A stretch of DNA of 28,893 bases from Deltaproteobacteria bacterium. GTDB taxonomy: Bacteria; Myxococcota; Kuafuiibacteriia; Kuafuiibacteriales; Kuafuiibacteriaceae. The notes below the pieces were generated by a model. It was given only the letters and a program-made list of their open reading frames with translations. It was not told the DNA's origin and searched no databases. Within the stretch, counting starts at the first letter, position 1, and the number at the start of each line of letters is the position of its first letter. Shown one piece after another: positions 1-27,566 of this stretch. Location: positions 1-28,893 of the forward strand of contig JAVJQW010000031.1 of the NCBI GenBank assembly GCA_040218735.1. Direction: 5' to 3'. The position numbers were made by a program, and so were the translations under genes.

Positions 1-1
1 T

Positions 2-355
2 ATGAACAGAAAAAACAATGCAGCCTCTCCTGGTCGGTTCATCGTTCTGGAGGTGAGCGTGGAGCTCATCGAGGAGCTCGTCGACGTGGTGAGCAAGATT
101 CGGAAGAAGGATGCGAGCTTGGCGAAGCAGATTCGGGACGCGGCGAGCTCGGTGGCGCTGAATCTCGGTGAAGGACGGCGGCGGGAAGGCGGGTCGAGGA
201 CGTACCACTACACGGTGGCTGCGGGGAGCGCGGACGAGGTGCGTTGCGCTCTGCGGGTGGCGGTGGCCTGGGGGTACGTGAAGGTGGAGGACGCAGCGGT
301 GAGCATGGAGCTCATCGATCGGATCAACGCGATGCTGTATCGGCTGACGCATTAG
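2..355 (+). CDS. Four-helix-bundle protein (23S rRNA IVP / Avd-like family)
   Basis: 117 aa all-helical protein with family motifs [19 protein letters not shown] and Y..AAGSADEV...L. The start is at the window edge, so upstream context is not visible. Confidence 0.9.
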
Positions 356-365
356 GTGGAGGTAC

Positions 366-393
366 CGGCGGCGCTCCGCGAGGGGCGCCGCCG
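366..393 (+). other. GC-rich stem-loop with GCGA (GNRA) tetraloop
   Basis: CGGCGGCGCTCC-GCGA-GGGGCGCCGCCG: 12-bp stem with one U-G pair, 10 nt after the stop codon. No U-tract follows. Confidence 0.75.
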
Positions 394-395
394 CG

Positions 396-612
396 ATCCG
401 ACTCGGAATCCGAGTCCGTGGCCGATTTCGAATCCGAATCCGAATCCGTGGCCGAATCCGAGTCCGTGGCCGAATCCGAGTCCGTGGCCGAATCCGAGTC
501 CGTGGCCGAATCCGAGTCCGTGGCCGAATCCGAGTCCGTGGCCGAATCCGAGTCCGTGGCCGAATCCGAGTCCGTAGCCGAATCCGAGTCCGTAGCCGAA
601 TCCGAATCCGAT
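396..612. repeat. 18-bp tandem repeat (GAATCCGAGTCCGTGGCC), about 10 units, built on a 6-bp sub-period
   Basis: GTGGCC/GTAGCC recurs at 418, 448, 466, 484, 502, 520, 538, 556, 574 and 592. CCG recurs about every 6 nt. Units degenerate at both ends. Confidence 0.97.
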
Positions 613-619
613 CCCTCAG

Positions 620-1363
620 CTACTCGAAGTCCTCGAGCCTCACCTCCACCACATCCCCCCGCGCCAGCAGCGCCCGCCTGAACCGCCCCTTGTGCCAGGC
701 GCCGAACGTCACCACGAACAGCTTCCCCTCGCCGCGATGCGCGTCCAGCGCCCGCGCGATCAGCCCGAAGTGCGCGCGGTTGATGTTGGTCCAGCCGCCC
801 GGGCCCAGGTCCTCGTTGAAGAGCCGATCGTACGGCTCCATGCCCCGCTCGACGATCGCGTCGTAGGCGTCGGTGTGGATCATCGCCGGGTCGTCGGCCC
901 ACCCCTTCGCTTCGAGCTCCGCGTCCGCGGCCTCCATCGCGGCGTCGACCTCGCGTGACTCCTCGGGACGCGTCGCCTTCCACTCCGTGAGCTTCGCCTT
1001 CCGGTCGTCGGCCATCGCGCGGGTCCACGCCGCGCAGGGGACGATCTCGAAGTCCATGGTTCGGGTGAGCGGGAAGACGACGTCCGTGTACTCGGGGAAG
1101 CGCCGCACGCGGGGCTCGGTGATTGTGCCGGTGGCGGCGAACTGCGCCCGCGCAGCCTCGAAGCGGTCCGGGGGGATCTCCGCCAACACGTAGTCGGGGT
1201 CCACGCGCTCGATCAGCGCTCGAAGCGCATCCACGCCGTACCGCGTGCTCGTGCGGTGCCCGTCGTGGATCATGACGAGCACCAGGACGCGGTTCTTCCG
1301 CTCCGCCGGGGGCGCGTGCGCGCACCCGAGAGTCACCAGCAGCAGCAGGGCAAGTCCGCGCAC
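620..1363 (-). CDS. Hypothetical lipoprotein, possibly EreA/ChaN/TraB(Tiki)-like fold
   Basis: C-terminal 247 aa of ORF 620..4402. GTG start at 1363 gives signal [14 protein letters not shown] (lipobox). Motif order VLVMIH, VLAE, N.N, VTFGAWH resembles the superfamily. Confidence 0.75.
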
Positions 1364-1453: not shown

Positions 1454-3964
1454 ATGCCGAGGTTGTTGCCCTGCCGCGTCGCGTCGCTCGCCTTCCTCGC
1501 CGCCCTGTCCTGCAAAGGGCTCGTCGGCGAGACGGACGGCCCCTCGGGCCCCGACGACCCGAACGTCCCCGTCGATGACCCCAACCTCGAGACCGGCCTC
1601 GACCACTGGACCGCCAAGTGCGCCGGCTGCCACGGCAACTTCGGCGCCGCCTCCGCGATCAGCTCCGGGAACGCCAACGGGGACTTCCGCCTCGACGCCA
1701 ACGCGGCCGTCGAAAAACACGGCGCCGGCCTCGAGGCCTACATCGACGCCGCGATGCCCCAGGCCGCGGCCGGGACCTGCGTGGGCCGCTGCGCCGAGCT
1801 CACCGGCGCGCTCATCCGCTCCAAGGCGCAACCTGTCTTGCCCGCCGACTGCCCCGCCGATCCCGCCCCAACCTACGGCGTCCGCGAGCTGAAGCTGCTC
1901 ACCAGCGCCGAGTACGACAACGCCCTCGAAGATCTCCTCGGCGCCCCGGGCGCGTACGGCGCGACCGTCGCCAACAACGACGGCGCGCTCGGCGGTTTCG
2001 TCAACATGCGCGGCAAGGGCGTCAACAGCGCGACGCTCGAGAGCTACGTCGCCAACGCCGAGGCCGTCGCGACCTGGGCGACGAGCAACGGCCGCCCGTT
2101 CACCTGCGGCGGCGACGCTACGGCGTGCGCGAACCGCTTCGTCGACGAGTTCCTCTTCTTCGCTTTCCGCGGCCCCGTCTCGGACGCGCAGCGCGCCGAG
2201 TACGTCGCGCTGTTCGAAACGTACCCCGCCGACGCGATGCAGCTCGCGCTCGAAGCCGCGCTGACTTCGCCCTACTTCCTGTACCGCGTCGAAGCCGGCG
2301 TCGATCTCACCACCGCGCGCGAGCGCGGCTACTACTCGGGCACCGGCGAGGCCGGCCCGACGAACGGCGCCACCGAAGAGATCCTCCCCGCGCAGTTCCC
2401 GCAGCAGGGCGGGCGCCTCGACGGCGACGTCTGGGGCTTCTTCGAAAACGGCGGCGTCGAGCTCGTCTTCACCACGCCGTTCACCGACCCGAGCACGATC
2501 GAGATCGACGCACGCGGCAGCAACCACGACCAGCACTGGCCCGAGCTCCGCGTGCGCGTGAGCGGCCACGAGATCGGCGTGGAGCGCGTCGACACCCAGA
2601 CCCTCACCACCTACCGCTTCACCGTCACGGGCGAGACCGGCACCCCCCGCGTCCGCATCTCGTTCGACAACGACTCCGGCGTCGCGCCGTATGGCCCCGG
2701 GCAAGACGCCAACCTCTTCATCGGTAGCGTCCGGCTCGTGACGACGTCGAGCGAGCCGCCGCCGATGATGCCGCCGCCCGCCGGAGACGCCCTCGCCGAC
2801 GTCGACCCGAACGCCTACGTGCTCACGCCGTACGAGCTGGCGTCCACCCTCGCCTTCATGCTCACCGGCTCTACGCCGGACCGCACCCTCCTCGCCGCGG
2901 CACGGGCCGACCAACTCACCACGCGCGCGCAGATTCGCGCGCAGGTCGAACGCCTCATCGACAGCGAGCGCGGCCGCGCGCACTTCGGCGACTTCGTCAC
3001 GCAGTGGTTCGACCTCGACGCCGTGAAGAGCGCCACCCGGCCCGACGTCACCGAGTTCACGCCCGCCGTGAAGGACGCGATGGTCGAAGAGGTGCGCCAG
3101 CACTTCGCGCACGTCTTCTATGAACCCGACGCCCCCTACCGCGAGTTCTTCGGCGGCGACTACACGTTCCTGAACCGCACCCTCGCCGACTTCTACGGAG
3201 TGACCGGCAACTTCGGAGACACGTTCACGCAGACCGTCGTCGAAGGTCGCGGCGGCCCGATCGCGAGCGGCGCGTTCATGGCGGCGAACGCACACGCCGA
3301 ACGCACCGCGCCGATCCTCCGCGCGGTGCACAGCCGGCAAGCGGCGCTCTGCCACTACATCGACCCGCCCAATTCCCCCATCGCGGGCGACGACATCGAC
3401 GCGCAGCGCGCCGCAGCGCAGATGCGGGTCACGGAGCGCGAGGCAGAGGGCACGCTGAGCAGCCGCGAGTTCTACTTCCTCTACACCGACGGCATCGAGG
3501 CCTGCGCCGGCTGCCACGAGAAGATCATCAACCCGATGTTCGGGATGGAGGACTTCGATCACGTCGGTCGTCTCCGCCCCACCGCAGCGGCCGGCACCGT
3601 GCTCGAGACGGTACGCGGCGAAGAGGTCGCGGTGTCGCTGGAGGGGACGCTGTTCGGCGTCGACTCCACGAGCGATCAGGCTTCGCTCGAGTATAGCGGC
3701 GCCAAGGACTTCTCGAACCAGATCGCCGACACCGACGCGGTGAAGTCGTGCCTCGTGCGCCGCGGGTTCCGCTTCGCCACCGGTCTCACCTTCAACGACC
3801 GCGACCTCGACACCGCGAACCAGGAGTCGCTCACCGAGGAGCAGCGCAACGCCTACGCGTGCATCGCATCGCGGATGAACGACGCGCTCGTCGACGCCAA
3901 CGAGAGCCCCCGCGCGATGTTCGTCGAGCTGGCCACGGAGTCGCTGGTGCGTCTGCGCCGCTGA
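1454..3964 (+). CDS. DUF1592-family (DUF1587/1595/1592/1588/1585) lipoprotein with N-terminal cytochrome c and an inserted CBM-like domain
   Basis: Lipobox LAALSC; CAGCH at 1619 and 3503; [71 protein letters not shown]. Confidence 0.9.
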
Positions 3965-3975
3965 GGAGCCCCGAG

Positions 3976-5265
3976 ATGAAGGACACGAACCACCGCAACA
4001 ACCGCCGCGAGTTCCTCGGCTTGGCTTCCCGGATCGGCGCCGCGGCGCTGGCGTCGCCGCTGGTCGGCGGCCTCCTCGGCTCGCGCGTCGCACGCGCGCA
4101 GGCCACCGGCCCCAAGCGCGTGGTGTTCGTCTACACCCCCGACGGCGCGCCCAACGGTCTGTGGCTCCCGAACGGCAATACACTGAATGTCGCGACGCGG
4201 GCCTACGAGGGCCTTCAGTCGGTCTGTCACTTCCGCGAGGTCGACGTCGTGAGCAGCGGCCACGGCCTCGCGCGCAAGTGCCTCGGGGCGCTGCGCTGGT
4301 CGCAGGACTGGACGAGCGACACCGTGGACCAGCAGGTCGCGAGTGTCCTCGGCGCGACGACGCCGTACGAGTCGTACACCCTCGGCGTGCAGGCCAACCC
4401 ACAGGAGGTCGTCGGGCGGAAGTCGGGGGACGCGGTGCCCGCGCAGAACAGCCCGGCCGCAGCGTACGAGCAGCTCTTCGGCGGCGCGCCGCCCACGAGT
4501 GACACCGCCGGTTTCCTCGCGCGAAAGCAGAGCGTGATGGACGTGAACCGCGCTGCGCTCGCGGAGCTGAAGGGGCGCCTCGGCACCTTCGAACGCGAGA
4601 CGTTGGAGAAACACGAAGTCGCGCTGCGCCAGGTCGAGCAGCGGCTCGTGGACTCCGTGAACTTCGAACCCGCGGAGGGCTGCGAGGCGCCGGCGTGGAA
4701 CGCAGGAGGGTACCCGACCGACGGCGGCGAGGGCGTCCCGTTCCTCCACACCGCCGAGCTGCAGTCGGACGTGATCGTCGCGGCGCTGTCGTGCGGCATC
4801 ACCAACGTGATGACGCTTCAGCTCGGATGGCACCAGGCGACCTGGTACGGCCACGACACCAACTACCGCGGCGACCACCACGGCTCATGTCACGCCGCCC
4901 CCGCGGCGGACAACGCGGAGATGACGAACTACCTCAGCCGCTGCGTCGCGTACCTCGTGCGCCGGCTCGTCGAAGAGGACGACCCCGCGGCGCCCGGCAC
5001 GAAGATGATCGACAACACCGTCGTCGTGCAGGTGACCGACATGGGCGACGGCCAGGACCACTCCGGCGGCAACGGCCCGAACATGATCGCGACCCGAATG
5101 CCGAGCTTCCGCACCGGAACGACCTCCTCGGGCGGCAACAACCTCGAAGTCCTCGAAGCGGTCGTCGAAGGCCTCGGCCTCGGGATGTACAAGGGCGAAG
5201 ACGCCAACGCGCACAAGATCTGGCCGCACGCAGGCGGCAGCGTGGCGACAGACCTGCTGAGCTAG
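3976..5265 (+). CDS. DUF1552 (HXXSHH) family Tat-exported protein
   Basis: RBS GAGGAG at 3963; twin-arginine RREFL signal; KRVVFVYTPDG, TVDQQVA, ALSCGITNV, HHGSCH, DMGDGQDH. Canonical partner of DUF1592 proteins. Confidence 0.9.
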   Translation: MKDTNHRNNRREFLGLASRIGAAALASPLVGGLLGSRVARAQATGPKRVVFVYTPDGAPNGLWLPNGNTLNVATRAYEGLQSVCHFREVDVVSSGHGLARKCLGALRWSQDWTSDTVDQQVASVLGATTPYESYTLGVQANPQEVVGRKSGDAVPAQNSPAAAYEQLFGGAPPTSDTAGFLARKQSVMDVNRAALAELKGRLGTFERETLEKHEVALRQVEQRLVDSVNFEPAEGCEAPAWNAGGYPTDGGEGVPFLHTAELQSDVIVAALSCGITNVMTLQLGWHQATWYGHDTNYRGDHHGSCHAAPAADNAEMTNYLSRCVAYLVRRLVEEDDPAAPGTKMIDNTVVVQVTDMGDGQDHSGGNGPNMIATRMPSFRTGTTSSGGNNLEVLEAVVEGLGLGMYKGEDANAHKIWPHAGGSVATDLLS

Positions 5266-9385: not shown

Positions 9386-10693
9386 TCAGCGCGCGCCGGG
9401 GACGCTCATGCTCTGCACGACGTACACGGTGTTGACCGTGGTGACGAACAGCGAGGTCAGCGTCCGGTCCACGAACGCGACGTTCGAAGCCGGGTCGGGC
9501 GTCGAGATGACGCCGTAGTACGTACCGTCCGGCCCGAACACCTCGACCCCGGCGTTGGCGGCCACGTAGACGTTGCCGAGGCTGTCGACCGTGATGCCCT
9601 GCGGCGCGCCGCTCACCGAACGCGCGAAGGCCGTCTCCGTCGACAGCGCGCCGTCGGTCGCGACGTCGAAGGCGTAGATCAACCCGTCGATCCGATCCGA
9701 CATGTAGAGCCGACTCTCGTCCGGCGACAGCTCCAACCCGCAGGGCTCGAACGAATCGAGCCCCTCCCACTCCGCGACCGGGGCGCCCATCCCCATCGGG
9801 ATCCTGAACAGCCCGACGAAGTCGAGCTCGCGCGCCGCCTCCATCGTGTTGAAGCCCGGGTCGGTGAAGTAGAGCGTCCCGTCGGTGCGACGCACGACGT
9901 CCTGCGGACCGTTGAGCGCGGAGCCCTCGTAGGCCTGCGCGATCGTCTGCGCACCCTGCAGCGTGAGGTTCGCGACGGAGCGGTCCGTGCTCAACGCGAC
10001 GACCAGGTTCCCCATCGCGTCGACCGCGAGGCCGGCCGGACCGCCGGGGAGGTTGAGCACCTCCATCGGCATGCCCGGGAGCATCGCCTGGTACATGCGG
10101 TCCTGCCGGCTGTCCGTGAACAAGACCGCAGCGGCGGCCGCGTTCCACACCGGAGCGTTGGCCCCGGCGTAACCGAACGCCAAGGGCTGGGCCGTCTCGG
10201 CGCCGGTCAACGGCCCCATGCCGCCGTCCATCCCCGTGCACATCCCTCCGTCACACCCGCCGGACGTGGGGCCCTGCGGCCCGCCGCGGTCCGCCCAGGC
10301 GACGATGATCGCGATCTCGTCCTCCGTCAGCATCGCCTGCCCGGCGGGGGGCATCGGCGAGGCGGTCGACGCCACGCGGATCGCCATGCGCTCGTAGACG
10401 GTGCCGCCGTTCGGTGACGCGGCCGCGACGTTGGCGTAGGTGACCAGGCTGAGCGGCGCGCCCTGCTGGAGCATCGTGCCGTGGCACATCAGGCAGCGCC
10501 GCGCGACGATCGGCTGCACGTCGACCTGCCAGTTGACGTCGGCGAGGTCCGGGTCGAGGCACTGGCCGTCGATGCACGCGAGGCCACCGCCGCACTCGTC
10601 CGCCCCGAAGCAGTCGGGGTTGCTGCGGCACGCCGTCGCGGCGGCCAGCACGGCGGCGATACACGCGGCCCGCATCATCATCCGATCTACCAT
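9386..10693 (-). CDS. Lipoprotein: cytochrome c domain fused to SMP-30/gluconolactonase beta-propeller
   Basis: Lipobox ATAC; Cys-rich repeat; DVQPIV..RCLMCH ... MPP; DGTLYFTDPG, LSPDESRLY, VDSLGNVYVA, SNVAF. The start may be a few codons downstream. Confidence 0.85.
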   Translation of the reverse strand: MVDRMMMRAACIAAVLAAATACRSNPDCFGADECGGGLACIDGQCLDPDLADVNWQVDVQPIVARRCLMCHGTMLQQGAPLSLVTYANVAAASPNGGTVYERMAIRVASTASPMPPAGQAMLTEDEIAIIVAWADRGGPQGPTSGGCDGGMCTGMDGGMGPLTGAETAQPLAFGYAGANAPVWNAAAAAVLFTDSRQDRMYQAMLPGMPMEVLNLPGGPAGLAVDAMGNLVVALSTDRSVANLTLQGAQTIAQAYEGSALNGPQDVVRRTDGTLYFTDPGFNTMEAARELDFVGLFRIPMGMGAPVAEWEGLDSFEPCGLELSPDESRLYMSDRIDGLIYAFDVATDGALSTETAFARSVSGAPQGITVDSLGNVYVAANAGVEVFGPDGTYYGVISTPDPASNVAFVDRTLTSLFVTTVNTVYVVQSMSVPGAR

Positions 10694-13179
10694 CGGTACA
10701 TCATCCCGGTCGGGAGAATCGTGAAGCCCTCACCCTCGTAGTACGTGTCCAGGTAGTAGTCGCCGGACGGCTCGGCCGGATCCGCGATGAAGAGCCACGC
10801 CGCGACCGCCAGCCCCGCGAGCGAGACGGTGTACGCACCGACCGACATCAAGCTCCACCGGAACGCCTCGTTGTCCAACGAACGAATCGGCGCGGAGTTC
10901 GCGGGCATGGGGTTGTCGGCGAGGAGCTGGTCGCGCTCCGACGTCGCGTTGAAGTGCGCGAGCAAGTACACGGTGCCGGCCACCGCGCTGACCAGGCCCG
11001 TCGCGCCCGAGAGCACCATCGCGGGCTGCGCGGCGTCCTCGATCGGGATGTCGCTGACCGCGGTCATGACCAGCGCGGTCCCCGCGCCCGCGAACGCGAG
11101 CGTGAACCCGAGCGTCGACCCGATGCTGTGCCGGTACGCGGCGTTGTCGAGGTCGCGCGCGGGCGTCCCGTCCGCGAGGTTGGCCTCCGCCGCGAGGAGC
11201 AAGTCGCGGTTGCCGGCGGTCTGCAGGTACAAGCCGCTGAACAACCACCCCAACGCGATGCCCGTGGCTCCGACCGTCCCGGCTGTCCACACCCCGACGT
11301 TCGAGACCGGCTCCAGGTCGGTGTCGGTCCCCGGCCCCACGAAGGGCGGCGGAGGTGGGGGCGGAGGAGGCGGCGGGCCCCCGACGATCGCGTTGCCGTT
11401 GTTCGGCGGACCCGCGGGAGGGCCCGACGGAGGTGGCGCGTTGGCCGCGGTCGTCGCGCCCTTGGGGGCGTCGTCCCACCAGCGTGTGTTCCGCTCCGCG
11501 AACGCGAGCAGCGCGTCGTGTTTCGGCGTCACACGACGGGGCTGATCGATATATTCGATGGAACCTTCGCGCCCGCTCTCGTCGAACGGCGTCGCGAACG
11601 ACGCGTGGGTGAACAGCTCTCCGCCGGAGCGACGCCAGCCGTCGAGCAAGGAGGCGTAGACCTGGCCGATCCCACGGTCTCGGTTGGCTGCGTTCAGGCG
11701 CGAAGCGAGCGCTTCGTCGCGGCGTAGCCCGGCGGGGGCGACGAGGTCCTGGCCTCCGTCGTACGCGGCGAGCCCCACGCCGTAGCGCGACGCGACGCGC
11801 GCGCTGGAGCGGACGTTCTCCAGCACCTTCGGCACCCGCTCGAGCAGCTGCTCGACGAGCCACTTCACGCTCTGACGACGGATCGTCGCGGCGTTCTGCG
11901 TCGTGACGAAGTCCGAGCCGACCAGCGCGTCGATCGCGAGCAGGTCGATGCGCTCCGCGGCGCGGTCGAAGCCGAGGAGACGCTCGTGCTCGGCGCCCGC
12001 CCCGGCGCGACTGCCGATCACCCGGATGACACGCGGGTCGTCCTCGAAGATGCGCGCGAACATGTCGAACACCTCGAGGGAGCGCTGCGACTGGTAGTAC
12101 AGACGCGCGAGTGAGGCGTCCTGTTCGAGGTTGCGGAAGCGGCCCTCCCGCTGCGCGTGGGCGAACGGAGCGGAGCCCGGGCGCCAGACCTCCGACGCGT
12201 ACTCGATGTAGACCTTCAGGTCCTCGTCGAGGTTCGCGCGGATCAGCTTCGCGAGCGCTTCGACGAACTCGTCGTCCGCGGCGTACGGCACCGTGATCCA
12301 CGCGTCCGCGCCGACCGCGTTGGCGAGCTGGATCATGTACTCGTACGCGACGCCGTGTTCGCCGGTCTGGCGTGCGTCCTTGTACTGCGTGCGATCTTCC
12401 CACCGCACGATCGGCGAGGTCGTCGCCTTGCCCCAGTCCGCGAACCGCAGCACCGAGAACTTCGTCAGGCGCCGCACGAAGAGCGGGTGGAACGGGTCGC
12501 GGTCCGCGCTCGACTCCAGCGACTCGGGGACGATGCGGATGTTGCGCACGTTGTCGGACGGGTTGGTCGCCTCGACGACGACGCGCATCCGCGCGTACGG
12601 CTTCGCTTCGACGAGGAGACGTCCGTCGCCCTCGCCCAACGTCTTCACCCCCTCGACGGAGAGGATCCCGCGCCCGTCGTACAGCACGACCATGCGACCG
12701 CCGTAGAGCGTCGGCACCTCGGCGACGGCGCGCTGGCCGTAGTCGAGCGCCTGCACCCAACCGTCGGGGTCGAGGTGCACGAGGTTGTTGTCCGCGCGGT
12801 TCTTCCGATCGCGCGACTGCCACGGCCCGGCGAAGCGGAACGCGTTGAGGAACGCCCAGTCGCGTGAGTCGAGCGTCGGCGCGGCGAGGTTCGTTGCGAT
12901 CGGCGAGCTCGCGCCGGGTTTGCCGCGGCGCCGAGAGCCCGGGAGGACGCGACGCTCCGGCTTCACCCGCTTCTTCGGCTTCCGCCGGCCGGCGGTGGGC
13001 TGGTCGCCCGTACCGAACCACAGCGGCGTCGCGTCACCACCCTTCGGAGGCGGCGGCGTGACGGCGACCGGCGGCGCCGGCCCCCGCCGTCGACGACGAC
13101 GCGAGCTCGCGCAGCTCGCGAGCAACGCGGCCGCGAGAACGAGTACGATCGCGGATGTCGAACGGTGACCCAGACGCAT
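10687..13179 (-). CDS. Lipoprotein with a clan GH-A-like (cellulose-binding/glycoside hydrolase-like) domain, Pro linker and C-terminal hydrophobic helices
   Basis: Signal MRLGHR...LLASC; FHPLF, LRFADW, GVAYEYMIQLAN, DAWITVP, LKVYIEYASEVW, AYDGGQ; poly-Pro linker; four hydrophobic segments. Confidence 0.75.
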   Translation of the reverse strand: MRLGHRSTSAIVLVLAAALLASCASSRRRRRRGPAPPVAVTPPPPKGGDATPLWFGTGDQPTAGRRKPKKRVKPERRVLPGSRRRGKPGASSPIATNLAAPTLDSRDWAFLNAFRFAGPWQSRDRKNRADNNLVHLDPDGWVQALDYGQRAVAEVPTLYGGRMVVLYDGRGILSVEGVKTLGEGDGRLLVEAKPYARMRVVVEATNPSDNVRNIRIVPESLESSADRDPFHPLFVRRLTKFSVLRFADWGKATTSPIVRWEDRTQYKDARQTGEHGVAYEYMIQLANAVGADAWITVPYAADDEFVEALAKLIRANLDEDLKVYIEYASEVWRPGSAPFAHAQREGRFRNLEQDASLARLYYQSQRSLEVFDMFARIFEDDPRVIRVIGSRAGAGAEHERLLGFDRAAERIDLLAIDALVGSDFVTTQNAATIRRQSVKWLVEQLLERVPKVLENVRSSARVASRYGVGLAAYDGGQDLVAPAGLRRDEALASRLNAANRDRGIGQVYASLLDGWRRSGGELFTHASFATPFDESGREGSIEYIDQPRRVTPKHDALLAFAERNTRWWDDAPKGATTAANAPPPSGPPAGPPNNGNAIVGGPPPPPPPPPPPFVGPGTDTDLEPVSNVGVWTAGTVGATGIALGWLFSGLYLQTAGNRDLLLAAEANLADGTPARDLDNAAYRHSIGSTLGFTLAFAGAGTALVMTAVSDIPIEDAAQPAMVLSGATGLVSAVAGTVYLLAHFNATSERDQLLADNPMPANSAPIRSLDNEAFRWSLMSVGAYTVSLAGLAVAAWLFIADPAEPSGDYYLDTYYEGEGFTILPTGMMYRW

Positions 13180-13296
13180 GGCGAACGCCGTCTTCCGAAT
13201 AGCGAGAATACCGGATCGGGTAAAGCGCGTCTTCCGTCGGAGCCCACGCCGTCCTCGACTTCGCTGAAGGCGCGTGCAAGGCTCTTTTCGTACGCG

Positions 13297-14328
13297 ATGT
13301 GGCGCCGCTTCCGTCCCTACGTGCGCGACCTGGTGGGTGACGTCCTCTATGCGTCGCGTCTGACGCGCCCCGCGCGAGCGGCCCGCGGGCTGCTGACGGT
13401 GGTCACTTTTCACCGCGTTCTGCCGCCGGAGCACTTCGAGGCGTATCCGCTGCGTGAGATCGCGGTGACGACCGACGAGTTCGAGTGGTTCGTCGCGTTC
13501 TTCGGGCGCCACTACACGATCCTCCCCCTCCCGGAGGCCTACCGGCGGTGGAACGCCTACGAGCGCACCGCGCGGCCGCTGCTGGCCATCACGTTCGACG
13601 ACGGTCAGCTCGACAACTTCCTGCACGCGTGCCCCATCCTGGAACGCGCGGGGGTGCGCGGGAGCTTCTACGTCCCCGTCGACGCGATCGAGGAGGACGG
13701 CACGCTCTGGCACGACCGCCTCGCCTACGCCGCGGACGGGCTGCTCAAGAAGGACGCCTCCACGGCGCGCGCGATGTTCTCGGAGATCGGCGTGACGAAC
13801 GATCCCGACGATCACGCGACGGTGGTGACAACCGTCGAGCGCGTGAAGTCGCTGCCGACCGAGGAGCGCCTCGACTTCGTCGCGCGGATGGAGAAGGCGC
13901 TGCCGGGTCCGGTGCGTCCAGAGTGGGACGGGATGATGTCGTGGGCGCAGCTGAAGACGATGGCCGACGCGGGGCACGAGATCGGGTCGCACTCGATGTC
14001 GCACCAGATCCTCCCGCTGCTCGACGACGCCGCGCTGACGAACGAGATCCACACGTCGCGCGCCGTGCTCGAGGAGAAGCTCGACCGTCCGATTCAGACC
14101 TTCTGTTATCCGAACGGTGACTACGACGATCGCACCCTCGCGGGCGTACGTGCGGAGGGGTACCGGCTCGGCGTCACGACGAAGTGGGGCCCGAACGGTG
14201 ACGGCGCAAATCCGTACGAGCTGCACCGCGTCGACGTGCAGGGCCAGCATGCCCGCACGACGGCCGGCGCGATGTCCGAGCCGCGAATGACTTGGCGTAT
14301 GTCGCGGTACTTCTCGGGGCCCAACTGA
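13297..14328 (+). CDS. Polysaccharide deacetylase (CE4/NodB)
   Basis: FHRV, ITFDDG, IGSHSMSH, FCYPNG motifs. Start uncertain (13297 chosen). Confidence 0.92.
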   Translation: MWRRFRPYVRDLVGDVLYASRLTRPARAARGLLTVVTFHRVLPPEHFEAYPLREIAVTTDEFEWFVAFFGRHYTILPLPEAYRRWNAYERTARPLLAITFDDGQLDNFLHACPILERAGVRGSFYVPVDAIEEDGTLWHDRLAYAADGLLKKDASTARAMFSEIGVTNDPDDHATVVTTVERVKSLPTEERLDFVARMEKALPGPVRPEWDGMMSWAQLKTMADAGHEIGSHSMSHQILPLLDDAALTNEIHTSRAVLEEKLDRPIQTFCYPNGDYDDRTLAGVRAEGYRLGVTTKWGPNGDGANPYELHRVDVQGQHARTTAGAMSEPRMTWRMSRYFSGPN

Positions 14329-15527
14329 TGGCAAAGCGCATCGGCTACCTCATCAGCCAGTACCCTGCGCCCTCGCACACGTTCATCCGTCGCGAGATCG
14401 ACGCGATCCGGCGCGCGGGTCTGGACATCGAGACGTTCTCGATTCGCCGCCCGCCCGACGACGAGATCCTGTCCGACCGCGACGCGCAGGATCGCGACGA
14501 GACGTTCTACGTCCTCCCCGCGTCGCCGTTGAGGTTGCTGCGCACCAACGTGCGTCAGCTCGTGCGGCGGCCGGGGCGGTACCTCGACACACTGAAGGCG
14601 TCGCTCGAACACCGCGTGCCGGGCACGCGCTCGCTGGTGTGGGCGCTGTTCTACTTCCTGGAGGGGATGCGGCTGTCGCGTGAGCTCGAGGACCGCGGCG
14701 TCGACCACCTCCACGATCACTTCGCGAACCCCGCGGCGCACGCCGGGTTCGCGGCGGTGCGGTACCTCGGGATCGGGTGGAGCCTCACGCTTCACGGCCT
14801 GTCGGACTTCGACTACCCGGGTGGGTTGCTGCTCGAAGACAAGATCAAGGCGGCGCGTTTCGTCGCGTGTGTGACGCACTTCGGGCGGGCGCAGGCGATG
14901 CGCCTGTCGGACCCCGGGCTGTGGGAGAAGCTGTTCATCTCGCGCTGTGGGATCGAGCTCGACAAGTTCCCGGAGCGCGACACGAGTGACGGGCGCTTGC
15001 GCTTCGTGTGTGTCGGTCGGCTGTCACCGGAGAAGGGTCAGCTCGGTTTGCTCGACGCGTTCAAGCGCGCCGTCGACCAGGGCCTGGACGCGGAGCTGAC
15101 GCTCGTCGGCGACGGGCCGGATCAGACGCGCGTCGAGGAGCGCATCCAGGCGCACGGCCTCCAAGACCGCATCAAGATGCCGGGGCGCATGGCGGAGGCC
15201 GACGCGCTGATGGCGATCGCGCGGAGCGACGTCATGGTCCTCGCCAGTTTCATGGAGGGCCTGCCGGTGGTGTTGATGGAGGCGCTCGCGCTGGAGATCC
15301 CGGTCATCGCGCCGTGCATCGCGGGCATCCCGGAGCTCGTCGAAGACGAGGTCACCGGCCTGCTCTTCCCCGCCGGCGACTGGGACGCGCTCGCAGAGCA
15401 GCTCGTTCGTCTCGGCGGTGACGCCGAGCTGCGGACGAAGCTCGGGCGCGCCGGTCACCAACGCATCATCGAAGAGTTCGACATCGACCGGGCGGTTCGC
15501 CCCCTGGTCGAGCACTTCCGACGTTAG
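14328..15527 (+). CDS. GT4 glycosyltransferase (WcaL-like)
   Basis: YLISQYPAPSHTFIRREI, VGRLSPEKG, EGLPVVLMEA. TGATG coupling to the deacetylase. Confidence 0.93.
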   Translation: MAKRIGYLISQYPAPSHTFIRREIDAIRRAGLDIETFSIRRPPDDEILSDRDAQDRDETFYVLPASPLRLLRTNVRQLVRRPGRYLDTLKASLEHRVPGTRSLVWALFYFLEGMRLSRELEDRGVDHLHDHFANPAAHAGFAAVRYLGIGWSLTLHGLSDFDYPGGLLLEDKIKAARFVACVTHFGRAQAMRLSDPGLWEKLFISRCGIELDKFPERDTSDGRLRFVCVGRLSPEKGQLGLLDAFKRAVDQGLDAELTLVGDGPDQTRVEERIQAHGLQDRIKMPGRMAEADALMAIARSDVMVLASFMEGLPVVLMEALALEIPVIAPCIAGIPELVEDEVTGLLFPAGDWDALAEQLVRLGGDAELRTKLGRAGHQRIIEEFDIDRAVRPLVEHFRR

Positions 15528-17228: not shown

Positions 17229-19586
17229 TCACCGCGGCGCGCAGCCGTTGTACAGGTACGTGAGGCCGCCCGACATCGAGTGCACGATCACCTGACACAC
17301 TTCGTTCGCCGCGCACTGCGCGTCGCGTGAGCACGACCCGAAGCTCGACGGCACCGGGACGCACGCCTTCGTCGCCTGCACGAAGTTCTGTCCCGGGTGG
17401 CTGATGTACGTGCAAAAGAAGCCGTTCGCGCACTGCCCGTCGTGGTCGCAGGGCTGGCGGCAGAACAGGTTGTTCGGGGACTGCACGCCCACCGAGCAGA
17501 TGCCGTTTTGGCAGTCGAAGTAGCTGTTGCAGTTGCCTTGCGCCGGCTGCGGTCCGAGCGCGCCGCGGCAGCGTTGGTCCCAGCGACCGGGTTGCTCTTC
17601 CAGCCAGACACAACGGTTGCCGCCGCCGCAGTCGGCGTCGGTGGTGCAGTCGATCGCCTCCGCGACGGCGGGCGCGCTCGCGACGGGGATGCACATGCGC
17701 GCGCCGGAGAACATGTGGCAGCCGAAGCCCGCGTCGCAGTCCGCGGGGCGGCCGCAGGAGCGCGTGCAGCGCGGCCCGGCGCCGTAGTCGAAGCACACGC
17801 TGGAGAGGCAGTCCGCGTCGGCGGTGCAGGTCGCGCCGAGCGCACCGAGCGGGGCTTCGCAGCTCCCGTTCGCGCCGCACACTTGGCCGCCGGGGCACCC
17901 GGTCGTCGCGCAACCAACGCACGTCGCGGTGGTCGCCGCGCAGGTCGGCGTCGGCGCGGCGCAATCCGCGTTGCTCACACAGGCGAGGCACAGCCCGGAG
18001 GGGACGTGGCAGGCCGGCGTCGCGCCGGCGCAATCCGCGTTCGACGTGCAGCCGATGCACGTGGAGGTCGCGCCGTCGCAGGCCGGCGCGGACGCGGGGC
18101 AATCGTCCTTCGTCACGCACTCGACGCACGTCGCCGACGGAACGTGGCAGGCCGGCGTCGCGCCGGCGCAATCCGCGTTCGAGGTGCAGCCGGTGCACTG
18201 CCCCGACGGGCTGCAGATCGGCGGCGTCGTGCACTCGGTGTTGGAAGCGCAGCCGCGGCACGCGCCGGTCGGGAGATCACAGACGGGCGTGGTGCCGGAG
18301 CAGTTGGCGTCCGAGGCGCAGCCGACGCACGCGCCGGCGTTGCAGGTCGGCGTGGGGGACGCGCACTCGCTGTCGGCGGCGCACGCGAAGCACAACCCGC
18401 TCGGGGCGCACTCCGGCTTGGTCGTCGGGCAGTCGACGCGCGCGGCGCACGCGTAGCAGACGCCGGTGGCGGTGTTGCAGGTCGGCGTCGGCGCTGCGCA
18501 GTCGGCGTCCGTCGCGCAGCGCGGGAGCTCGCAGCGGCCGGTGCCCGCGTTGCAGACCTCGTTGGCCGCGCAGGTCGGTCCCCCCGCCTGGTCGCAGCCG
18601 GGTCGACAGCGCTCCGCGTCGCAGACGGGGGCGGCGATCGGGCACTCGGCGTCGGTCGTGCAGCTCGGGCGCGGTGCGCACCGCCCCGCTTCGCAGATCT
18701 CCTCCGCGCCGCAGACGGGGCCGTTGGGTTGGCCGCACCCGGCGACGCAGACCTGCGCTTCACACACCGTCACCGGCGGCGCACAGCCGCTGTCGTCGGT
18801 GCACATCGCGCCGGTCGACTCCGGGACGCAGCGCCCGGTGGTGTCGTCGCAGACCTCGCCCGCGCCGCACCCCGCCGCGCCGCACCCCGCGACGCAGACA
18901 CCACGCTCACACACGGTGCTCGGCGGTGCGCACTCGAGGTCGATGCGGCAACCGCCGTCGGCGATGCAGCGACCGGTGGCTTCATCGCAGACCTCCCCCG
19001 TCGCGCAGACGACGGGGCTGTTGATCTTCCCGCAGCCGCCAACGCACAGCGCACCCTCGCACACGGTCGTGGGGGGTCGGCACTGGCCGTCGTTCGTGCA
19101 CTCGGGGCGCTCGCTGATGCACGCGCCCGCGCTGCACACCCACCCCGTCGGGCAGTGCGCGCTGTCGACGCATGGACGGCAGACGCCGAGCGCGGTGTCG
19201 CAGTAGGCGTCGGTGCAGTCGGTGTCCGCGGCGCACGCCTGCGGACCCGAGCGGCACTCGCCGGTTGCGGCTTCGCACCAGGTGCCGGGCGCGCACTCGA
19301 CGGTGTCGCAGCTGCGTCGGCGGTCGGTGCAGCGTCGCGTCGTGTCGTCGCAATAGCTCCCGCCGGGGCAGTCGGCGTGCGCGGCGCACGGCCGGGGCGC
19401 GTTGGGGTCGAGGACGCAGGCACCGTCGACGCACAGGTGGAGCGCGCCGCAGTCGGAGACCGAGACACAATCCGGCGTCGTCAGGGTCGGCGACGAGCAG
19501 GCCGCCAGCAGGAGGGTGAGGAGACCGACCGAGACCTCCCGTGCGCCGGGGGGCTCGAGCCGGTCTCCTCGGGGTGAGCGCCACAT
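17229..19586 (-). CDS. Cys-rich repeat surface lipoprotein
   Basis: LLTLLLAA-C lipobox; many C-x(2-5)-DC / TP.C / C.GC modules. The start may be about 17 codons downstream. Confidence 0.85.
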   Translation of the reverse strand: MWRSPRGDRLEPPGAREVSVGLLTLLLAACSSPTLTTPDCVSVSDCGALHLCVDGACVLDPNAPRPCAAHADCPGGSYCDDTTRRCTDRRRSCDTVECAPGTWCEAATGECRSGPQACAADTDCTDAYCDTALGVCRPCVDSAHCPTGWVCSAGACISERPECTNDGQCRPPTTVCEGALCVGGCGKINSPVVCATGEVCDEATGRCIADGGCRIDLECAPPSTVCERGVCVAGCGAAGCGAGEVCDDTTGRCVPESTGAMCTDDSGCAPPVTVCEAQVCVAGCGQPNGPVCGAEEICEAGRCAPRPSCTTDAECPIAAPVCDAERCRPGCDQAGGPTCAANEVCNAGTGRCELPRCATDADCAAPTPTCNTATGVCYACAARVDCPTTKPECAPSGLCFACAADSECASPTPTCNAGACVGCASDANCSGTTPVCDLPTGACRGCASNTECTTPPICSPSGQCTGCTSNADCAGATPACHVPSATCVECVTKDDCPASAPACDGATSTCIGCTSNADCAGATPACHVPSGLCLACVSNADCAAPTPTCAATTATCVGCATTGCPGGQVCGANGSCEAPLGALGATCTADADCLSSVCFDYGAGPRCTRSCGRPADCDAGFGCHMFSGARMCIPVASAPAVAEAIDCTTDADCGGGNRCVWLEEQPGRWDQRCRGALGPQPAQGNCNSYFDCQNGICSVGVQSPNNLFCRQPCDHDGQCANGFFCTYISHPGQNFVQATKACVPVPSSFGSCSRDAQCAANEVCQVIVHSMSGGLTYLYNGCAPR

Positions 19587-21901: not shown

Positions 21902-22495
21902 CTACTTCGTCGACTCCCACTTCATCTCGTTCTGCCGCACGCGCGGGTGCGACACGACGAGGTGCCAGATCACCGCCTGGAACGCCTCGGTCTGCGCCGT
22001 GGCCTCGCCGCTCGGGTTCGGGATGATCAGCACCGCGTCACCCTCGCGCCCCGCGTGCCCGCCGTCGCGACCGACGACGCCCACGATGCGCGCGCCGACC
22101 TCCTTCGCGTGTGTCATGCAGTTCACGAGGTTGATGCTCACGTTCTTCTCGCGGTTGCCGCCGCCGACCGAGAAGATGAACACGGCGTCGTTGCCATTCA
22201 TCTTGCTGGTCTTCAGCCAGTTCACGTAGCTCGTGTCCCAGCCGTCGTCGTTGATGCGCGCGGTCAGCTCGGAGACGTTGTCCGTCGGCGTGTACGACTC
22301 GACGCAAGCGATCTTGCGGAAGTCGTTCACCGCGTGGCTCGCGTGGCCGGCGCCGCCGCCGCTCCCGATGAAGAAGAGGCGGCCGCCCTTCTCCCGCACG
22401 TCGACGATGATGTCGATCATCGCCTCGATCTTCGAACGGTCGATCCCGTCGATGATCTCTTTCGCTTCGTTCAGATACGCCTCGATGTACTCCAT
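21902..22495 (-). CDS. gmhA: SIS-domain phosphoheptose isomerase-like protein
   Basis: GGRLFFIGSGGGAGHASH, LTARINDDG, FSVGGG, GRDGG; operon context. Confidence 0.8.
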   Translation of the reverse strand: MEYIEAYLNEAKEIIDGIDRSKIEAMIDIIVDVREKGGRLFFIGSGGGAGHASHAVNDFRKIACVESYTPTDNVSELTARINDDGWDTSYVNWLKTSKMNGNDAVFIFSVGGGNREKNVSINLVNCMTHAKEVGARIVGVVGRDGGHAGREGDAVLIIPNPSGEATAQTEAFQAVIWHLVVSHPRVRQNEMKWESTK

Positions 22496-22500
22496 GGTCC

Positions 22501-23034
22501 CTACTCTTCGCGCCTCGCGAGGGAGGCGATCAAGTGCGCCGCGGCCAAGAGGTCCTCTGCCTCGTAGTCGCCACGCGTCTTACGATTGTCTTCACGCCGG
22601 ATCAGCACCGTCGGCACCCCCGCCGCCGCGCCCGCGTCGATGTCCTTCCAGGAATCACCGACGAAGAACGACCGCGACAGGTCCACGTCGTGCTTCGAAG
22701 CCAGCGCCGTGAGCATCCCGGGTTTCGGTTTGCGGCAGTCACACTGGTGCGCGTCGTCGTGCGGGCACACCACCACGTCGTCCGGCGCGATCGCCGCACG
22801 CACCTGCTCGAGCATCACGTCGAGCGTCGCCTGGGTCATCAAACCGCGCGCGATGTCCGGCTGGTTCGTCACCACGTAGATCCGAAACCCCGCGGTCCGA
22901 ATCACCTCCGCCGCGTCCGCGGCGAAGTCGAAGATCTCGAAGTCCTCCAGGGTCCGCGGCGACACCATGCGGCCGTCGCGCTCGACGACGCGATTGATCA
23001 CGCCATCGCGATCCAGGAAGACGGCCCGCTCCAC
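22501..23034 (-). CDS. gmhB: D,D-heptose 1,7-bisphosphate phosphatase (HAD IIIA)
   Basis: FLDRDGVIN, VTNQ, CPH...CDCRKPKPGM, VGDSWKD. Confidence 0.92.
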   Translation of the reverse strand: MERAVFLDRDGVINRVVERDGRMVSPRTLEDFEIFDFAADAAEVIRTAGFRIYVVTNQPDIARGLMTQATLDVMLEQVRAAIAPDDVVVCPHDDAHQCDCRKPKPGMLTALASKHDVDLSRSFFVGDSWKDIDAGAAAGVPTVLIRREDNRKTRGDYEAEDLLAAAHLIASLARREE

Positions 23035-23050
23035 GCTTCAGTCCAACCCT

Positions 23051-24070
23051 TCAGTCGAGACCGATCGGCTGGCGCTGCTCGGCCGCGCGGTAGATCGCGT
23101 CGAGCACCCGCATCACGACCACGCCGTCGTTCGGCGTGCCCATGTAGCGCCCGGTCTCGATGCCGCGGATGAGGTCGTCCCACTCCAGCTTCCAGGAGAT
23201 GTCCTCTTCGTCGTAGACGGTGCGCGACATGTACGGCGCCCCGCCCTCCTTCTTCCGCTTCGCGAAGATCAGCGTCTCCGGCCCGTAGCTCCGACCGAGC
23301 CCGTCGACCGTCACCGAGCCGTCCGTACCGAACACCTCGAACGAGAACATGTTCTTCCACTGCGTCCACGCCGTGTGGAAGCTCGCCAGCGCACCCGACT
23401 CGAACTTCATCAACGCAAACGCGCTGTCCTCGAGCGGCGCGATCGGCCACGCCGCGGTCTGCAGATAACCGAACACCTCGGTCGGCTCACCCGCGAACCA
23501 CGCGATCAGATCGATCACGTGCACACCCTGGTCGGTCAGCTCCCCGCCACCCGCCAGCTCGCGGTTGCCGCGCCACTCGTTCTCGTAGCCCGGACGACCG
23601 CCGTGCCCGTAGCGCGCGCGGATGTTGATGATCTGACCGATCTCCCCGTCCGCGTACATCTCGTGCGCACGCATCAGCGCCGGGTGGTAGCGGTGGTTGA
23701 AGCCGATCTTCAGCACCTGGTTCGTGCTGGTCGCGGCGCCCGCCATCTGGATCGCCTCGTGGATGTTGCGGCCCATCGGCTTCTCGACGAGGACGTGTTT
23801 GCCCTTCTTCAGCGCCGAGATGCAGATCTCCGCGAGGAACGCGTTCGGCGTGGCGACCACCACGATGTCGGCGTTCGAGTCCGCCAACGCACCCGACCAC
23901 GAGGTCGACCACGGCGCGCCCACGCGCTCGCCGAGGCGCTTCGCCGCCGCTTCGTTCGGATCCACGACGACCGCGAGCTCACACCGCGGGTCGTTCACGA
24001 TCACGTCGGAACGTTTCCCGCCGATCAGCCCGCAGCCGACCACCGCGACTCGGTACTTGCGCTCACTCAT
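23051..24070 (-). CDS. Gfo/Idh/MocA NAD(P) oxidoreductase
   Basis: VVGCGLIG, HVLVEKPM, GFNHRY, GGGELTDQGVH. Confidence 0.93.
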   Translation of the reverse strand: MSERKYRVAVVGCGLIGGKRSDVIVNDPRCELAVVVDPNEAAAKRLGERVGAPWSTSWSGALADSNADIVVVATPNAFLAEICISALKKGKHVLVEKPMGRNIHEAIQMAGAATSTNQVLKIGFNHRYHPALMRAHEMYADGEIGQIINIRARYGHGGRPGYENEWRGNRELAGGGELTDQGVHVIDLIAWFAGEPTEVFGYLQTAAWPIAPLEDSAFALMKFESGALASFHTAWTQWKNMFSFEVFGTDGSVTVDGLGRSYGPETLIFAKRKKEGGAPYMSRTVYDEEDISWKLEWDDLIRGIETGRYMGTPNDGVVVMRVLDAIYRAAEQRQPIGLD

Positions 24071-24074
24071 GGGT

Positions 24075-25085
24075 TCAGCCCGTCGGGAGCGAGGCGACGA
24101 CCTTCGTCCCCTCGCGGTCCACGCCGTAGTGCACGCGCGGCATCCCGAGCTCCTTCATGAAGTTCTCGAGGCGCCGCGGGTTCTTCGCGCAGTAGAGCAT
24201 CAGGAAGCCGCCGCCACCGGCGCCGATGATCTTGCCGCCGAGCACGTCGTAGTTGGAGCGCGCCTCGTCGTAGATCTCGTTCCACTTCTCGTTCGAGATC
24301 TTGTTCGACATGCGCTTCTTGCGCTCCCAGTGCTCGTGCAGCAGGCGCCCGAACTCGTCGAACTCCTGCGTCTCGATCTGCTCGAGGATGCGGTACCCGA
24401 GGTCCTTGATCGCCTTGAGGCTGTCGCTCACGACGTCCGACTTCGGGTGCTCCTTCTTCTTCATCGCGTTGTCCTGATCCGACAGGACGTCCGGCGCCGC
24501 GCGACGCGTGCCCGTGTAATAGATGTGCGTGTTGCCGACGAGGTCCGCCATCGCGCTCTCGCCGAGATCCAACGAACGCACCGCGACCTTCCCGTCCTTC
24601 GCGATGTCCAACACCGTGAAGCCACCGAACGCCGCCATGTACTGGTCCTGCTTCCCGATCGGCTTCTTCAGGATGTCGAGCTCGATGTGGCAGGCGTCGT
24701 CCGCGGTCTTCTCGAGCGACTGGTACTCCCGCTTGTGCGCCTGCAGCGCGGTGAGCAACCCGACCAGGTAACACGACGACGAACCCACTCCGGTGCCCGC
24801 GGGGATGTCGGCCAGCGAGGAGATCTCGATCTGCCGCTCGATGCCGTACCGACGCAGCGCCTCACGCGCGAGCTCGTGTTTGAGCTCCGAGACGTGCTCG
24901 ACCTCCTCCGCCTTCGTGTAGTGCAGCCGCACCTTCGTGTCCGCGATCGGGCGGTTCACACACAGGTACATGTACTTGTTGAGCCCCATCGCGAAGATGA
25001 AGCCGCCCTCCTTCTCGTAGAAGGAAGGGAGGTCGGTCCCGCCACCGCCGAGGGTGACGCGGAAGGGGGTACGCGTAATGATCAT
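24075..25085 (-). CDS. hddA: D-glycero-alpha-D-manno-heptose-7-phosphate kinase (GHMP family)
   Basis: RTPFRVTLGGGGTD, IPAGTGVGSSS, IGKQDQY, GGKIIGAGGGGF; start MIITRTP overlaps the upstream stop. Confidence 0.9.
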   Translation of the reverse strand: MIITRTPFRVTLGGGGTDLPSFYEKEGGFIFAMGLNKYMYLCVNRPIADTKVRLHYTKAEEVEHVSELKHELAREALRRYGIERQIEISSLADIPAGTGVGSSSCYLVGLLTALQAHKREYQSLEKTADDACHIELDILKKPIGKQDQYMAAFGGFTVLDIAKDGKVAVRSLDLGESAMADLVGNTHIYYTGTRRAAPDVLSDQDNAMKKKEHPKSDVVSDSLKAIKDLGYRILEQIETQEFDEFGRLLHEHWERKKRMSNKISNEKWNEIYDEARSNYDVLGGKIIGAGGGGFLMLYCAKNPRRLENFMKELGMPRVHYGVDREGTKVVASLPTG

Positions 25086-25816
25086 TGCAGCTTCACCTTG
25101 CCGGCCGAGATGAGCGCGTTCGCACGCTCGAAGGTCTCGGGCGTATCGATGCCCAAGCAATAGCCGGTAATGGAATGGCCATAAAGAGGACGCTCCCGCT
25201 CCAGCAGATCCGGGAACACCTCCTTACCGAAGTCGTAGAACGTGTCCGCCGGGATCGCGTCGAGCACCGACGGCTCGACGAAGTACACCCCCGCGTTCAC
25301 GAGCGGCGACACCTCGTCACTCGCGCCCTCCGCGAACCGCACCACGCGCGCGTCGTCGTCGATGACGACACGCCCACCCGCGATCCCCGTATGCGGATGC
25401 GTATTCCTGTCGAACAGCGCGATCGACACGTCGCCGCCCTTGTCGAAGTGGAACTTCTCGAACTGCGCCAGGTCCGTGAACAGCAGGTTGTCGCCGTACA
25501 CGACGACGAACGTGTCGCCGCCCAGCTCGGCCGCGAGGTTCTTCACCGCGCCCGCCGTGCCGAGGATCTCGTCCTCGACGGAGTAGGTGATCGACACGCC
25601 GAACTTCGATCCGTCGCCCACCGCCTCGCGGATCAGATCCGCCTTGTAGTGGAGGTTCACGAAGATCTCTTCGTACCCCTGCGACGCGAGCCAGCGGAGG
25701 TTCCGGAAGATGATCGGGTCGCCGTCGATCTCGAGCAGGGGCTTCGGACCACCCTTCGTCACGGCGTGGATGCGGGTGCTCTTCCCCGCCGCGAGCAGCA
25801 GAACTCGGCGGGCCAC
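25082..25816 (-). CDS. hddC: Sugar-1-phosphate nucleotidyltransferase (HddC-like)
   Basis: LLAAGKSTR, PKPLL, LGTAGAVK, VVYGD, NAGVY, IDTP. The gene symbol rests on operon context. Confidence 0.8.
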   Translation of the reverse strand: MARRVLLLAAGKSTRIHAVTKGGPKPLLEIDGDPIIFRNLRWLASQGYEEIFVNLHYKADLIREAVGDGSKFGVSITYSVEDEILGTAGAVKNLAAELGGDTFVVVYGDNLLFTDLAQFEKFHFDKGGDVSIALFDRNTHPHTGIAGGRVVIDDDARVVRFAEGASDEVSPLVNAGVYFVEPSVLDAIPADTFYDFGKEVFPDLLERERPLYGHSITGYCLGIDTPETFERANALISAGKVKLQ

Positions 25817-27450: not shown

Positions 27451-27566
27451 CAGGAGTGTGCTTACTAGAAAACGAAGACGTGCACCACGCGCTTCGCACG
27501 TTGACTGCTCAGTCTTGAAACGCGATGTTCCCGCCCCTGCGCGACACGTCGCAGGTCGAACCACGG

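Follow-up and report, generated by a model that had tools for sequence, protein, structure and literature searches.

The window, a stretch of 28,893 nucleotides from a member of the Myxococcota, probably opens with the right-hand half of a mobile cassette bounded by repeats, the ring-forming protein of which would recruit an enzyme in trans. The complete cassette would read repeat array, palindromic leader, four-helix-bundle gene, GC hairpin, optional convergent paralogue and repeat array; it would occupy gaps between host genes and multiply in a genome without a transposase or reverse transcriptase (RT) of its own. A sequence-only reading of the window had put gene, hairpin and array together as a single unit, which the enrichment of arrays and stems around relatives supports, and had named a small mobile cassette as one form the unit could take, which is supported by multi-copy genomes and by filled and empty sites in distant relatives. 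The window begins 1 nt 5' of the ATG, and the left half of the locus lies beyond its edge. That reading lacked the usual upstream half, with its array and palindromic leader, as well as the frequent tail-to-tail second gene and the link to the intervening sequence (IVS) of 23S rRNA.

The locus at the start of the window

The gene at 2–355 (forward strand) runs from an ATG to a TAG and encodes a protein of 117 aa with a pI of 9.2. This protein matches PF05635 in a Pfam profile search (E 4.6e-15, 56.2 bits against a cut-off of 33.8) and TIGR02436 (55.6 bits, cut-off 24), and its AlphaFold model has four helices with a mean pLDDT of 93 and low pLDDT at residues 5–10, which bears out the four-helix-bundle gene first called by eye. 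The first 12 codons (1–37, forward strand) lie outside the folded bundle and, to judge by relatives, would supply the right arm of a leader palindrome, the left arm falling before the window start. XCC0516 (2GSC) and BT_0352 (2RLD), stand-alone PF05635 proteins with five chains per entry, are the top matches in both sequence and structure; Foldseek places 2RLD and 2GSC first for the modelled bundle, followed by the DGR protein Avd (4DWL; TM 0.77–0.82, 12% identity). A model of four copies scores 0.82 against 0.02 for the best control, with a contact agreement of 100% and partner pLDDT of at least 89. Twenty of 30 solved homo-pairs and 1 of 23 single chains attain the mark by which we predict a homo-oligomer, and the score may be due to likeness to solved pentamers. 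We infer that the basic protein assembles into a ring, as XCC0516 and Avd do. The P0001 cluster (97% identical) has 8 members, and the PF05635 profile matches 12,205 clusters at 50% identity.

A GC-rich hairpin (366–393, forward strand) begins 10 nt past the stop of the gene, with arms at 366–377 and 382–393, a GCGA loop at 378–381 and no U tract; read by eye, its 12 pairs are 11 Watson-Crick and one G-U. Behind it lies a short tandem repeat array (396–611), the putative right end of the cassette, which resolves into NNNCCG hexamers. Within this array of 12-bp period, TRF reports an 18-bp period repeated 9.8 times (98%) as a homogeneous core at 434–610. The array ends 7–8 nt ahead of the TAG (620–622) of a convergent host gene (620–1357, reverse strand), which marks the right border and lies outside the cassette. 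The sequence-only reading had described a 12-bp hairpin within 10 nt of the gene and about 215 bp of tandem repeat ending 7 nt from a convergent stop, and both descriptions hold. A comparable array is absent from the 53 other 500-nt tiles of the window, and the array region folds no better than its shuffles (z +1.04). Long frames cross the array; we rejected it as coding sequence because the genes on both sides stop before it. The convergent gene encodes 245 aa with no Pfam match, and its ESM Atlas neighbours fall in TraB-like and DUF5694-like clusters, which we take as a lead only.

Scans of positions 1–1500 gave no sigma-70 promoter and no intrinsic terminator (GC stem plus U tract). No Rfam family matches in the window, and the locus thus does not lie inside 23S rRNA. 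The RT motif pair is absent from all six frames of the window, and a Pfam scan found neither RT nor transposase among its 28 ORFs; the absence of RT and rRNA noted at the outset therefore stands.

The gene at 2–355 has a G-skew of +0.30, an absolute value unmatched in 571 sliding windows of 354 nt, and its four-fold sites hold 44 G and 8 C. The contrast with neighbouring genes that had drawn attention is therefore genuine at this gene but does not extend to the family: the mean skew across 80 relatives is +0.02 (sd 0.12), and we rejected G-skew as a family trait. At the four-fold sites of the bundle genes in L001–L080, T was counted 1092 times and A 356 times, host genes being near even. A second skew, which is reproducible, concerns the host genes that end at arrays. 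By heuristic gene calls, the four-fold G-skew of the last 25 codons is +0.42 in 39 such genes, against +0.02 in 34 distant convergent ends and −0.12 in 37 distant co-directional ends with a gap, and it is higher beside arrays in 16 of 18 genomes (p 0.001). The convergent gene of the window carries the same signature in its last 25 codons (623–697, reverse strand), where four-fold sites hold 12 G and 1 C, compared with 47 G and 42 C in the interior. Possible sources are target choice, local mutation or selection for Rho loading on antisense RNA.

Elsewhere in the window, a DUF1592/PSD-family gene with a CBM60 insert precedes a DUF1552 (HXXSHH) gene (1454–5265), a common pair. A long reverse-strand frame (10687–14334) that encodes 1215 aa and matches no Pfam family partly overlaps a polysaccharide deacetylase on the opposite strand, and the gene structure at 10.7–13.1 kb is ambiguous. 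A tandem repeat of 69/138 bp (17919–18210) lies within a cysteine-rich ORF (17229–19586), and a cluster for nucleotide-sugar (heptose-like) biosynthesis and glycosyltransferases occupies 21902–28772.

Arrays, stems and leaders in the closer relatives

Our closer set is the best 80 of 169 relatives found in species-representative genomes with a query built from a 14-sequence alignment, a query that biases the 80 loci towards two motifs. The loci come from 26 genomes, mostly of Myxococcota and Planctomycetota, and 14 of these genomes hold two or more. Counted among the best 80 of 169, the three richest genomes have at least 15, at least 12 and at least 10 loci, and those of the first all lie on one closed chromosome. 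A short-period array stands in at least one flank of 53 of the 58 relatives with at least 400 nt visible on both sides, against a background of 14 in 953 distant tiles and 7 in 76 distant intergenic gaps. A stem of at least 12 bp follows the stop in 36 of 74 relatives, compared with 3 of 186 host stops. The flanks of homologues, which the sequence-only reading had proposed to examine, are thus enriched in both features. By genome, 21 of the 26 are array-positive and five have no array at any copy; in the gene tree, the six rows closest to the window gene all lack a downstream array that reaches the threshold (0/6). The gene tree is a quick version in which the root and the clade of L008, L031, L033, L053 and L054 (wrong frame) are meaningless; these five loci were left out of the composition count, and identities were taken from tblastn frames.

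The stem itself is common, but its loop is not conserved. Loops vary widely among the 48 relatives with stems of at least 9 bp, and we therefore rejected a GNRA loop as a conserved ligand; the GNRA-type loop first reported is real at the window locus, as GCGA, and goes no further. Of the 30 loci with arrays on both sides, 10 have them inverted and 2 direct, and in 18 the two are unrelated or ambiguous. The purine-inward orientation is a weak tendency (33 of 56 arrays upstream and 23 of 36 downstream), and the window array is neutral. The sense strand of the inverted arms would form 20 G-U against 24 A-C mispairs, which gives no preference for G-U on that strand. Arrays without an ORF also occur away from the family genes in the same genomes. 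A second family gene lies tail to tail within 1.3 kb in 23 of the 80 loci, and L004, L006, L009, L012 and L032 share a segment of about 200 nt between the paired genes, in either orientation.

Of the 134 genes nearest the loci, 131 were scanned, after removal of two duplicates and an overlapping frame and with three sequences shortened; the best five Pfam families were considered for each. The 131 include five transposases of mixed families and two serine recombinases, the rest being unrelated host genes; none is an RT, and no HUH transposase appears among the best five families. The single RT motif match in the 80 loci falls within a four-helix-bundle gene. The cassette itself contains no catalytic domain of the DDE, HUH, tyrosine recombinase or serine recombinase kinds. 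A weak search of 13 longer profile matches gave no conserved fusion partner, and in the 10 inspected the extension resembles a leader or array wrongly called as coding sequence, or an unrelated run-on. Roughly counted against the majority codon, pN/pS is 0.12–0.25 in seven within-genome copy sets, a sign of purifying selection among the copies. Changes per site among copies are 0.25 for A (only 20 sites), 0.29 for C, 0.22 for G and 0.35 for T, and an excess of adenine changes of the DGR type was not found among copies, at the low power that 20 A sites allow. A contig end lies within 600 nt in 22 of 80 relatives. The break is upstream in 16 of 80, three of them within 10 nt of the match, so that a window starting at an ATG is typical of the family.

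Many relatives have a palindromic leader ahead of the gene. Both of its inner boxes are present in 33 of 106 gene copies, four rows of which are one duplicated region, and planctomycete families have other palindromes upstream, as judged by eye. Each inner arm resembles what we take to be a sigma-54 box. Compensatory changes, nearly all Watson-Crick, occur at 9 of 21 leader pairs (17 of 20 extracted leaders), a covariation that related sequences can also acquire by descent or by conversion between arms; three almost fixed mismatches lie amid the pairs. Pairing of the outer arms covers the ribosome-binding site or, in L003, L010, L061 and L074, the ATG and first codons instead, the ATG of these four lying 13–14 nt past the conserved box. 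Since the start of L061 is much like that of the window gene, the same leader is predicted upstream of position 1. A translation start hidden in read-through RNA is an insertion-sequence trait, as in IS10.

Distant relatives and the evidence for mobility

A tblastn search of plasmids and phages with the window protein gave no match at 1e-5. The distant set was reached through a weak plasmid match from P0019, which led to 38 records; 20 of these, picked for diversity, and the seed make up the 21 loci. A distant Nostoc member has one weak phage match. Inverted arrays of 7–8-mers bracket 15 of the 21 plasmid genes, against 0 of 63 shifted controls; of the remaining loci, two have direct arrays, one falls just below the mark and three have an array on one side or none. 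The purine-rich strand of the plasmid arrays mostly points inward, and the repeated unit varies from lineage to lineage and from one side of a cassette to the other. A Treponema locus has a similar anatomy. Altogether, gene and arrays occur together in cyanobacteria, Bacteroidota, Gemmatimonadota, Alphaproteobacteria, Spirochaetota, Myxococcota and Planctomycetota. The distant cassettes sit between the stop of one operon gene and the start of the next, at sites that include cas6/cas4, cmr2/cmr3 and two ribonucleotide reductase genes.

One relative, L097 (Azospirillum), lies within 23S rRNA, where its arrays form a closing stem (z −8.6); Rfam reported nothing in 9 of the 10 relative loci scanned. 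The IVS of 23S rRNA that carries an ORF (S23p/IVP; Coxiella, Leptospira) encodes a protein of the same family as the window gene. For Coxiella, passages of PMC4990558 describe an IVS with terminal inverted repeats and with heptamer repeats upstream of the ORF, an anatomy that recurs in L097, as well as a terminal stem cut by RNase III in vitro and a protein that appeared unmade and decaying; the same passages cite a 1993 proposal that the IVS is a mobile element with an ORF serving mobility. The window copy, in contrast, stands outside rRNA, and the relatives are dispersed, multi-copy and placed between protein genes, often with a leader of their own, a 3' hairpin and a second paralogue.

Mobility was followed in an operon of Nostoc plasmids, present in 15 records of which nine were compared. 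The junction between genes A and B is filled in 3 of the 9 loci and that between genes B and C in 1 of 9, and the genes that fill the two junctions are 39% identical and come with different heptamers. L081 and L084, one of which is filled and the other empty, have copies of gene B that are 99.7% identical. The Nostoc junctions show a duplication of 0–3 bp, which is not consistent with a target-site duplication of fixed length, and some likeness of the target to the repeat unit. The search for empty sites that the sequence-only reading had suggested was thus successful in cyanobacterial relatives, which are too distant to match the window protein directly. An insert of 182 bp with no ORF and with inverted heptamer ends splits one four-helix-bundle gene, and it matches 106 places in 46 plasmids, in 30 records over 80% of its length. 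This ORF-less element (L107:1129–1310, L102:167–456) is common in Nostocales plasmids and may be a named cyanobacterial repeat.

In the closer set, copies at three sites of one genome are 96–98% identical to one another, whereas copies at the same host sites in related genomes are 64–86% identical and once inverted. At the level of sequence, this identity pattern is one of repeated insertion or of overwriting by conversion, and the host sites common to related genomes can also be explained by vertical descent together with gene conversion. Relatives show that the cassette moves, and the window locus would share this mobility by extension from them.

Other features were seen around the cassettes. 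In the genome of L055, smc and a glycogen/starch synthase gene are joined by a cassette, while L058, L019 and L053 have separate cassettes at the smc–ftsY junction and at the synthase gene; the L055 arrangement could possibly represent a rearrangement through cassettes. L013 (7498–9603) and L032 (7703–9808) carry the same serine-recombinase element, which interrupts the leader palindrome ahead of the second gene at an identical point in both. In L023, about 2–6 kb upstream of the match, three tandem units, one with a confirmed IS110-family transposase, are separated by runs of GAGGCA-type hexamers, and IS110 may target such arrays.

Proposed mechanism, rival explanations and significance

We propose that the protein ring would bind the folded-back single strand of the cassette and hand this strand to a catalytic enzyme supplied in trans. 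The enzyme might act on DNA, as host recombination or repair or as the nuclease of another element, an assignment we put forward only tentatively; a borrowed RT is a somewhat weaker candidate. The DNA-level route is placed slightly ahead because leaders with putative promoters travel with the copies and no RNA or adenine signature was seen. The arrays would serve as cassette ends and provide short homology for insertion and for the overwriting of resident copies. In host transcripts that read through, the leader palindrome would mask the start of translation, and expression would come from an internal promoter. In rRNA, the inverted arrays would form a stem removed by RNase III, which would make such an insertion tolerable.

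The sequence-only reading had offered, besides a mobile cassette, an RNA-binding protein with its own repetitive RNA ligand. This option fares poorly: array units differ, the array is unstructured, the sense strand shows no preference for G-U and the GNRA loop is not conserved.

The cassette resembles several known elements and differs from each. Like MITEs, REP/REPIN-RAYT systems, in which a HUH transposase stands beside short palindromes, and STRR, which are cyanobacterial heptamer repeats, it is small, dispersed and intergenic, with inverted ends and ORF-less derivatives. Unlike them, it has ends of tandem 6–8-mers whose unit changes by lineage, no consistent target duplication and an internal gene that is not a known transposase. 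It shares with IS10 a translation start hidden in an inverted repeat and with eukaryotic Foldback elements its tandem-repeat ends, but differs from insertion sequences and Foldback in having no DDE, HUH, tyrosine or serine recombinase and a total length of about 0.5–2 kb. Transposition by an unidentified mechanism has been suggested for short-unit bacterial satellites in a passage of PMC6749651.

The strongest rival, though an unlikely one, holds that arrays and hairpins are self-standing miniature repeats of the MITE, REP or STRR kind and that the bundle gene is a captured passenger kept for host benefit. The ORF-less arrays away from the family genes (the 7 of 76 gaps) and the common 182-bp element fit this explanation, as do the inverted heptamer pairs of Xanthomonas, for which the relevant passages of PMC4692102 report no gene, and purifying selection is explained equally well by host benefit. 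Many separate captures would however be needed to unite gene and arrays across seven lineage groups despite the change of unit, and host need hardly explains 10 or more conserved copies per genome.

It is improbable that the locus is instead a host regulatory or defence module, in which the protein binds RNA, be it its own hairpin or array or the operon mRNA, and adjusts the expression of nearby operons, perhaps by way of RNase III cleavage or Rho loading. The G-skewed host ends that face arrays would yield C-rich antisense RNA, the kind that Rho prefers. The protein is basic and has the Avd fold. Cassettes do lie inside cas, ribonucleotide reductase and other operons, and 18 such genes in cas loci are reported in a passage of PMC3936711. 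The neighbours, however, share no function, and one and the same operon holds a cassette at one junction, at another or not at all; the sense strand with its lack of G-U preference and the unstructured array also argue against an RNA target.

An ordinary DGR avd, with RT, template repeat and target upstream of the window, is very improbable. The window protein shares with Avd the bundle, a basic character, a predicted oligomeric state and a stem-loop close behind the gene, and the DNA ahead of position 1 is outside the window; moreover, DGR RNAs carry tetraloop-capped stems that bind Avd, according to a part of 10.1101/2023.10.23.563531. Against this, the protein scores 14.1 bits with NF033474, the DGR Avd model, below the cut-off of 80, no template or variable repeat was seen in the window, the 131 neighbours include no RT, the sole RT motif match lies inside a bundle gene and no adenine bias was found at the 20 A sites available. 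In DGRs, the template repeat and RT usually come after avd, whereas an array and a convergent gene come after the window gene. Least credible is chance, with an orphan gene that happens to lie beside a terminator of the usual kind and a minisatellite born of slippage, or else an error of assembly: the window begins at an ATG, 22 of 80 relatives are close to a contig end and array lengths may be mis-assembled, but the enrichment of arrays and hairpins over controls, found also on a closed chromosome and complete plasmids, has already largely refuted this reading.

Returning to the cassette, we suggest with considerable reserve that stand-alone PF05635 genes in general mark a class of mobile elements without a catalytic mobility enzyme, in which an Avd-like ring binds the folded-back strand of the element, borrows a host or foreign enzyme, possibly an RT, and also spreads ORF-less copies. 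Among the main texts of openly licensed PubMed Central papers and bioRxiv, with subscription papers outside the scope, we found no description of such a cassette. If the suggestion is correct, ORF-bearing 23S rRNA IVSs and many dispersed 6–8-mer bacterial satellites would have one origin, the Avd of DGRs would be a domesticated member of this class of mobile element, and a strand-specific G footprint would be left on neighbouring host genes. An element that has no transposase and settles between genes while leaving them intact would matter for genome annotation, in which arrays are miscalled as low-complexity proteins and leaders and arrays coincide with contig breaks, and a cassette in a cas operon may mean insertion and not a role in CRISPR. 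Multi-copy cassettes outside rRNA, filled and empty alleles in culturable strains of Nostoc and ORF-less partners make both the mobility of IVS proteins and the spread of satellites testable, and a very large family of unassigned function would thereby be tied to a testable role.
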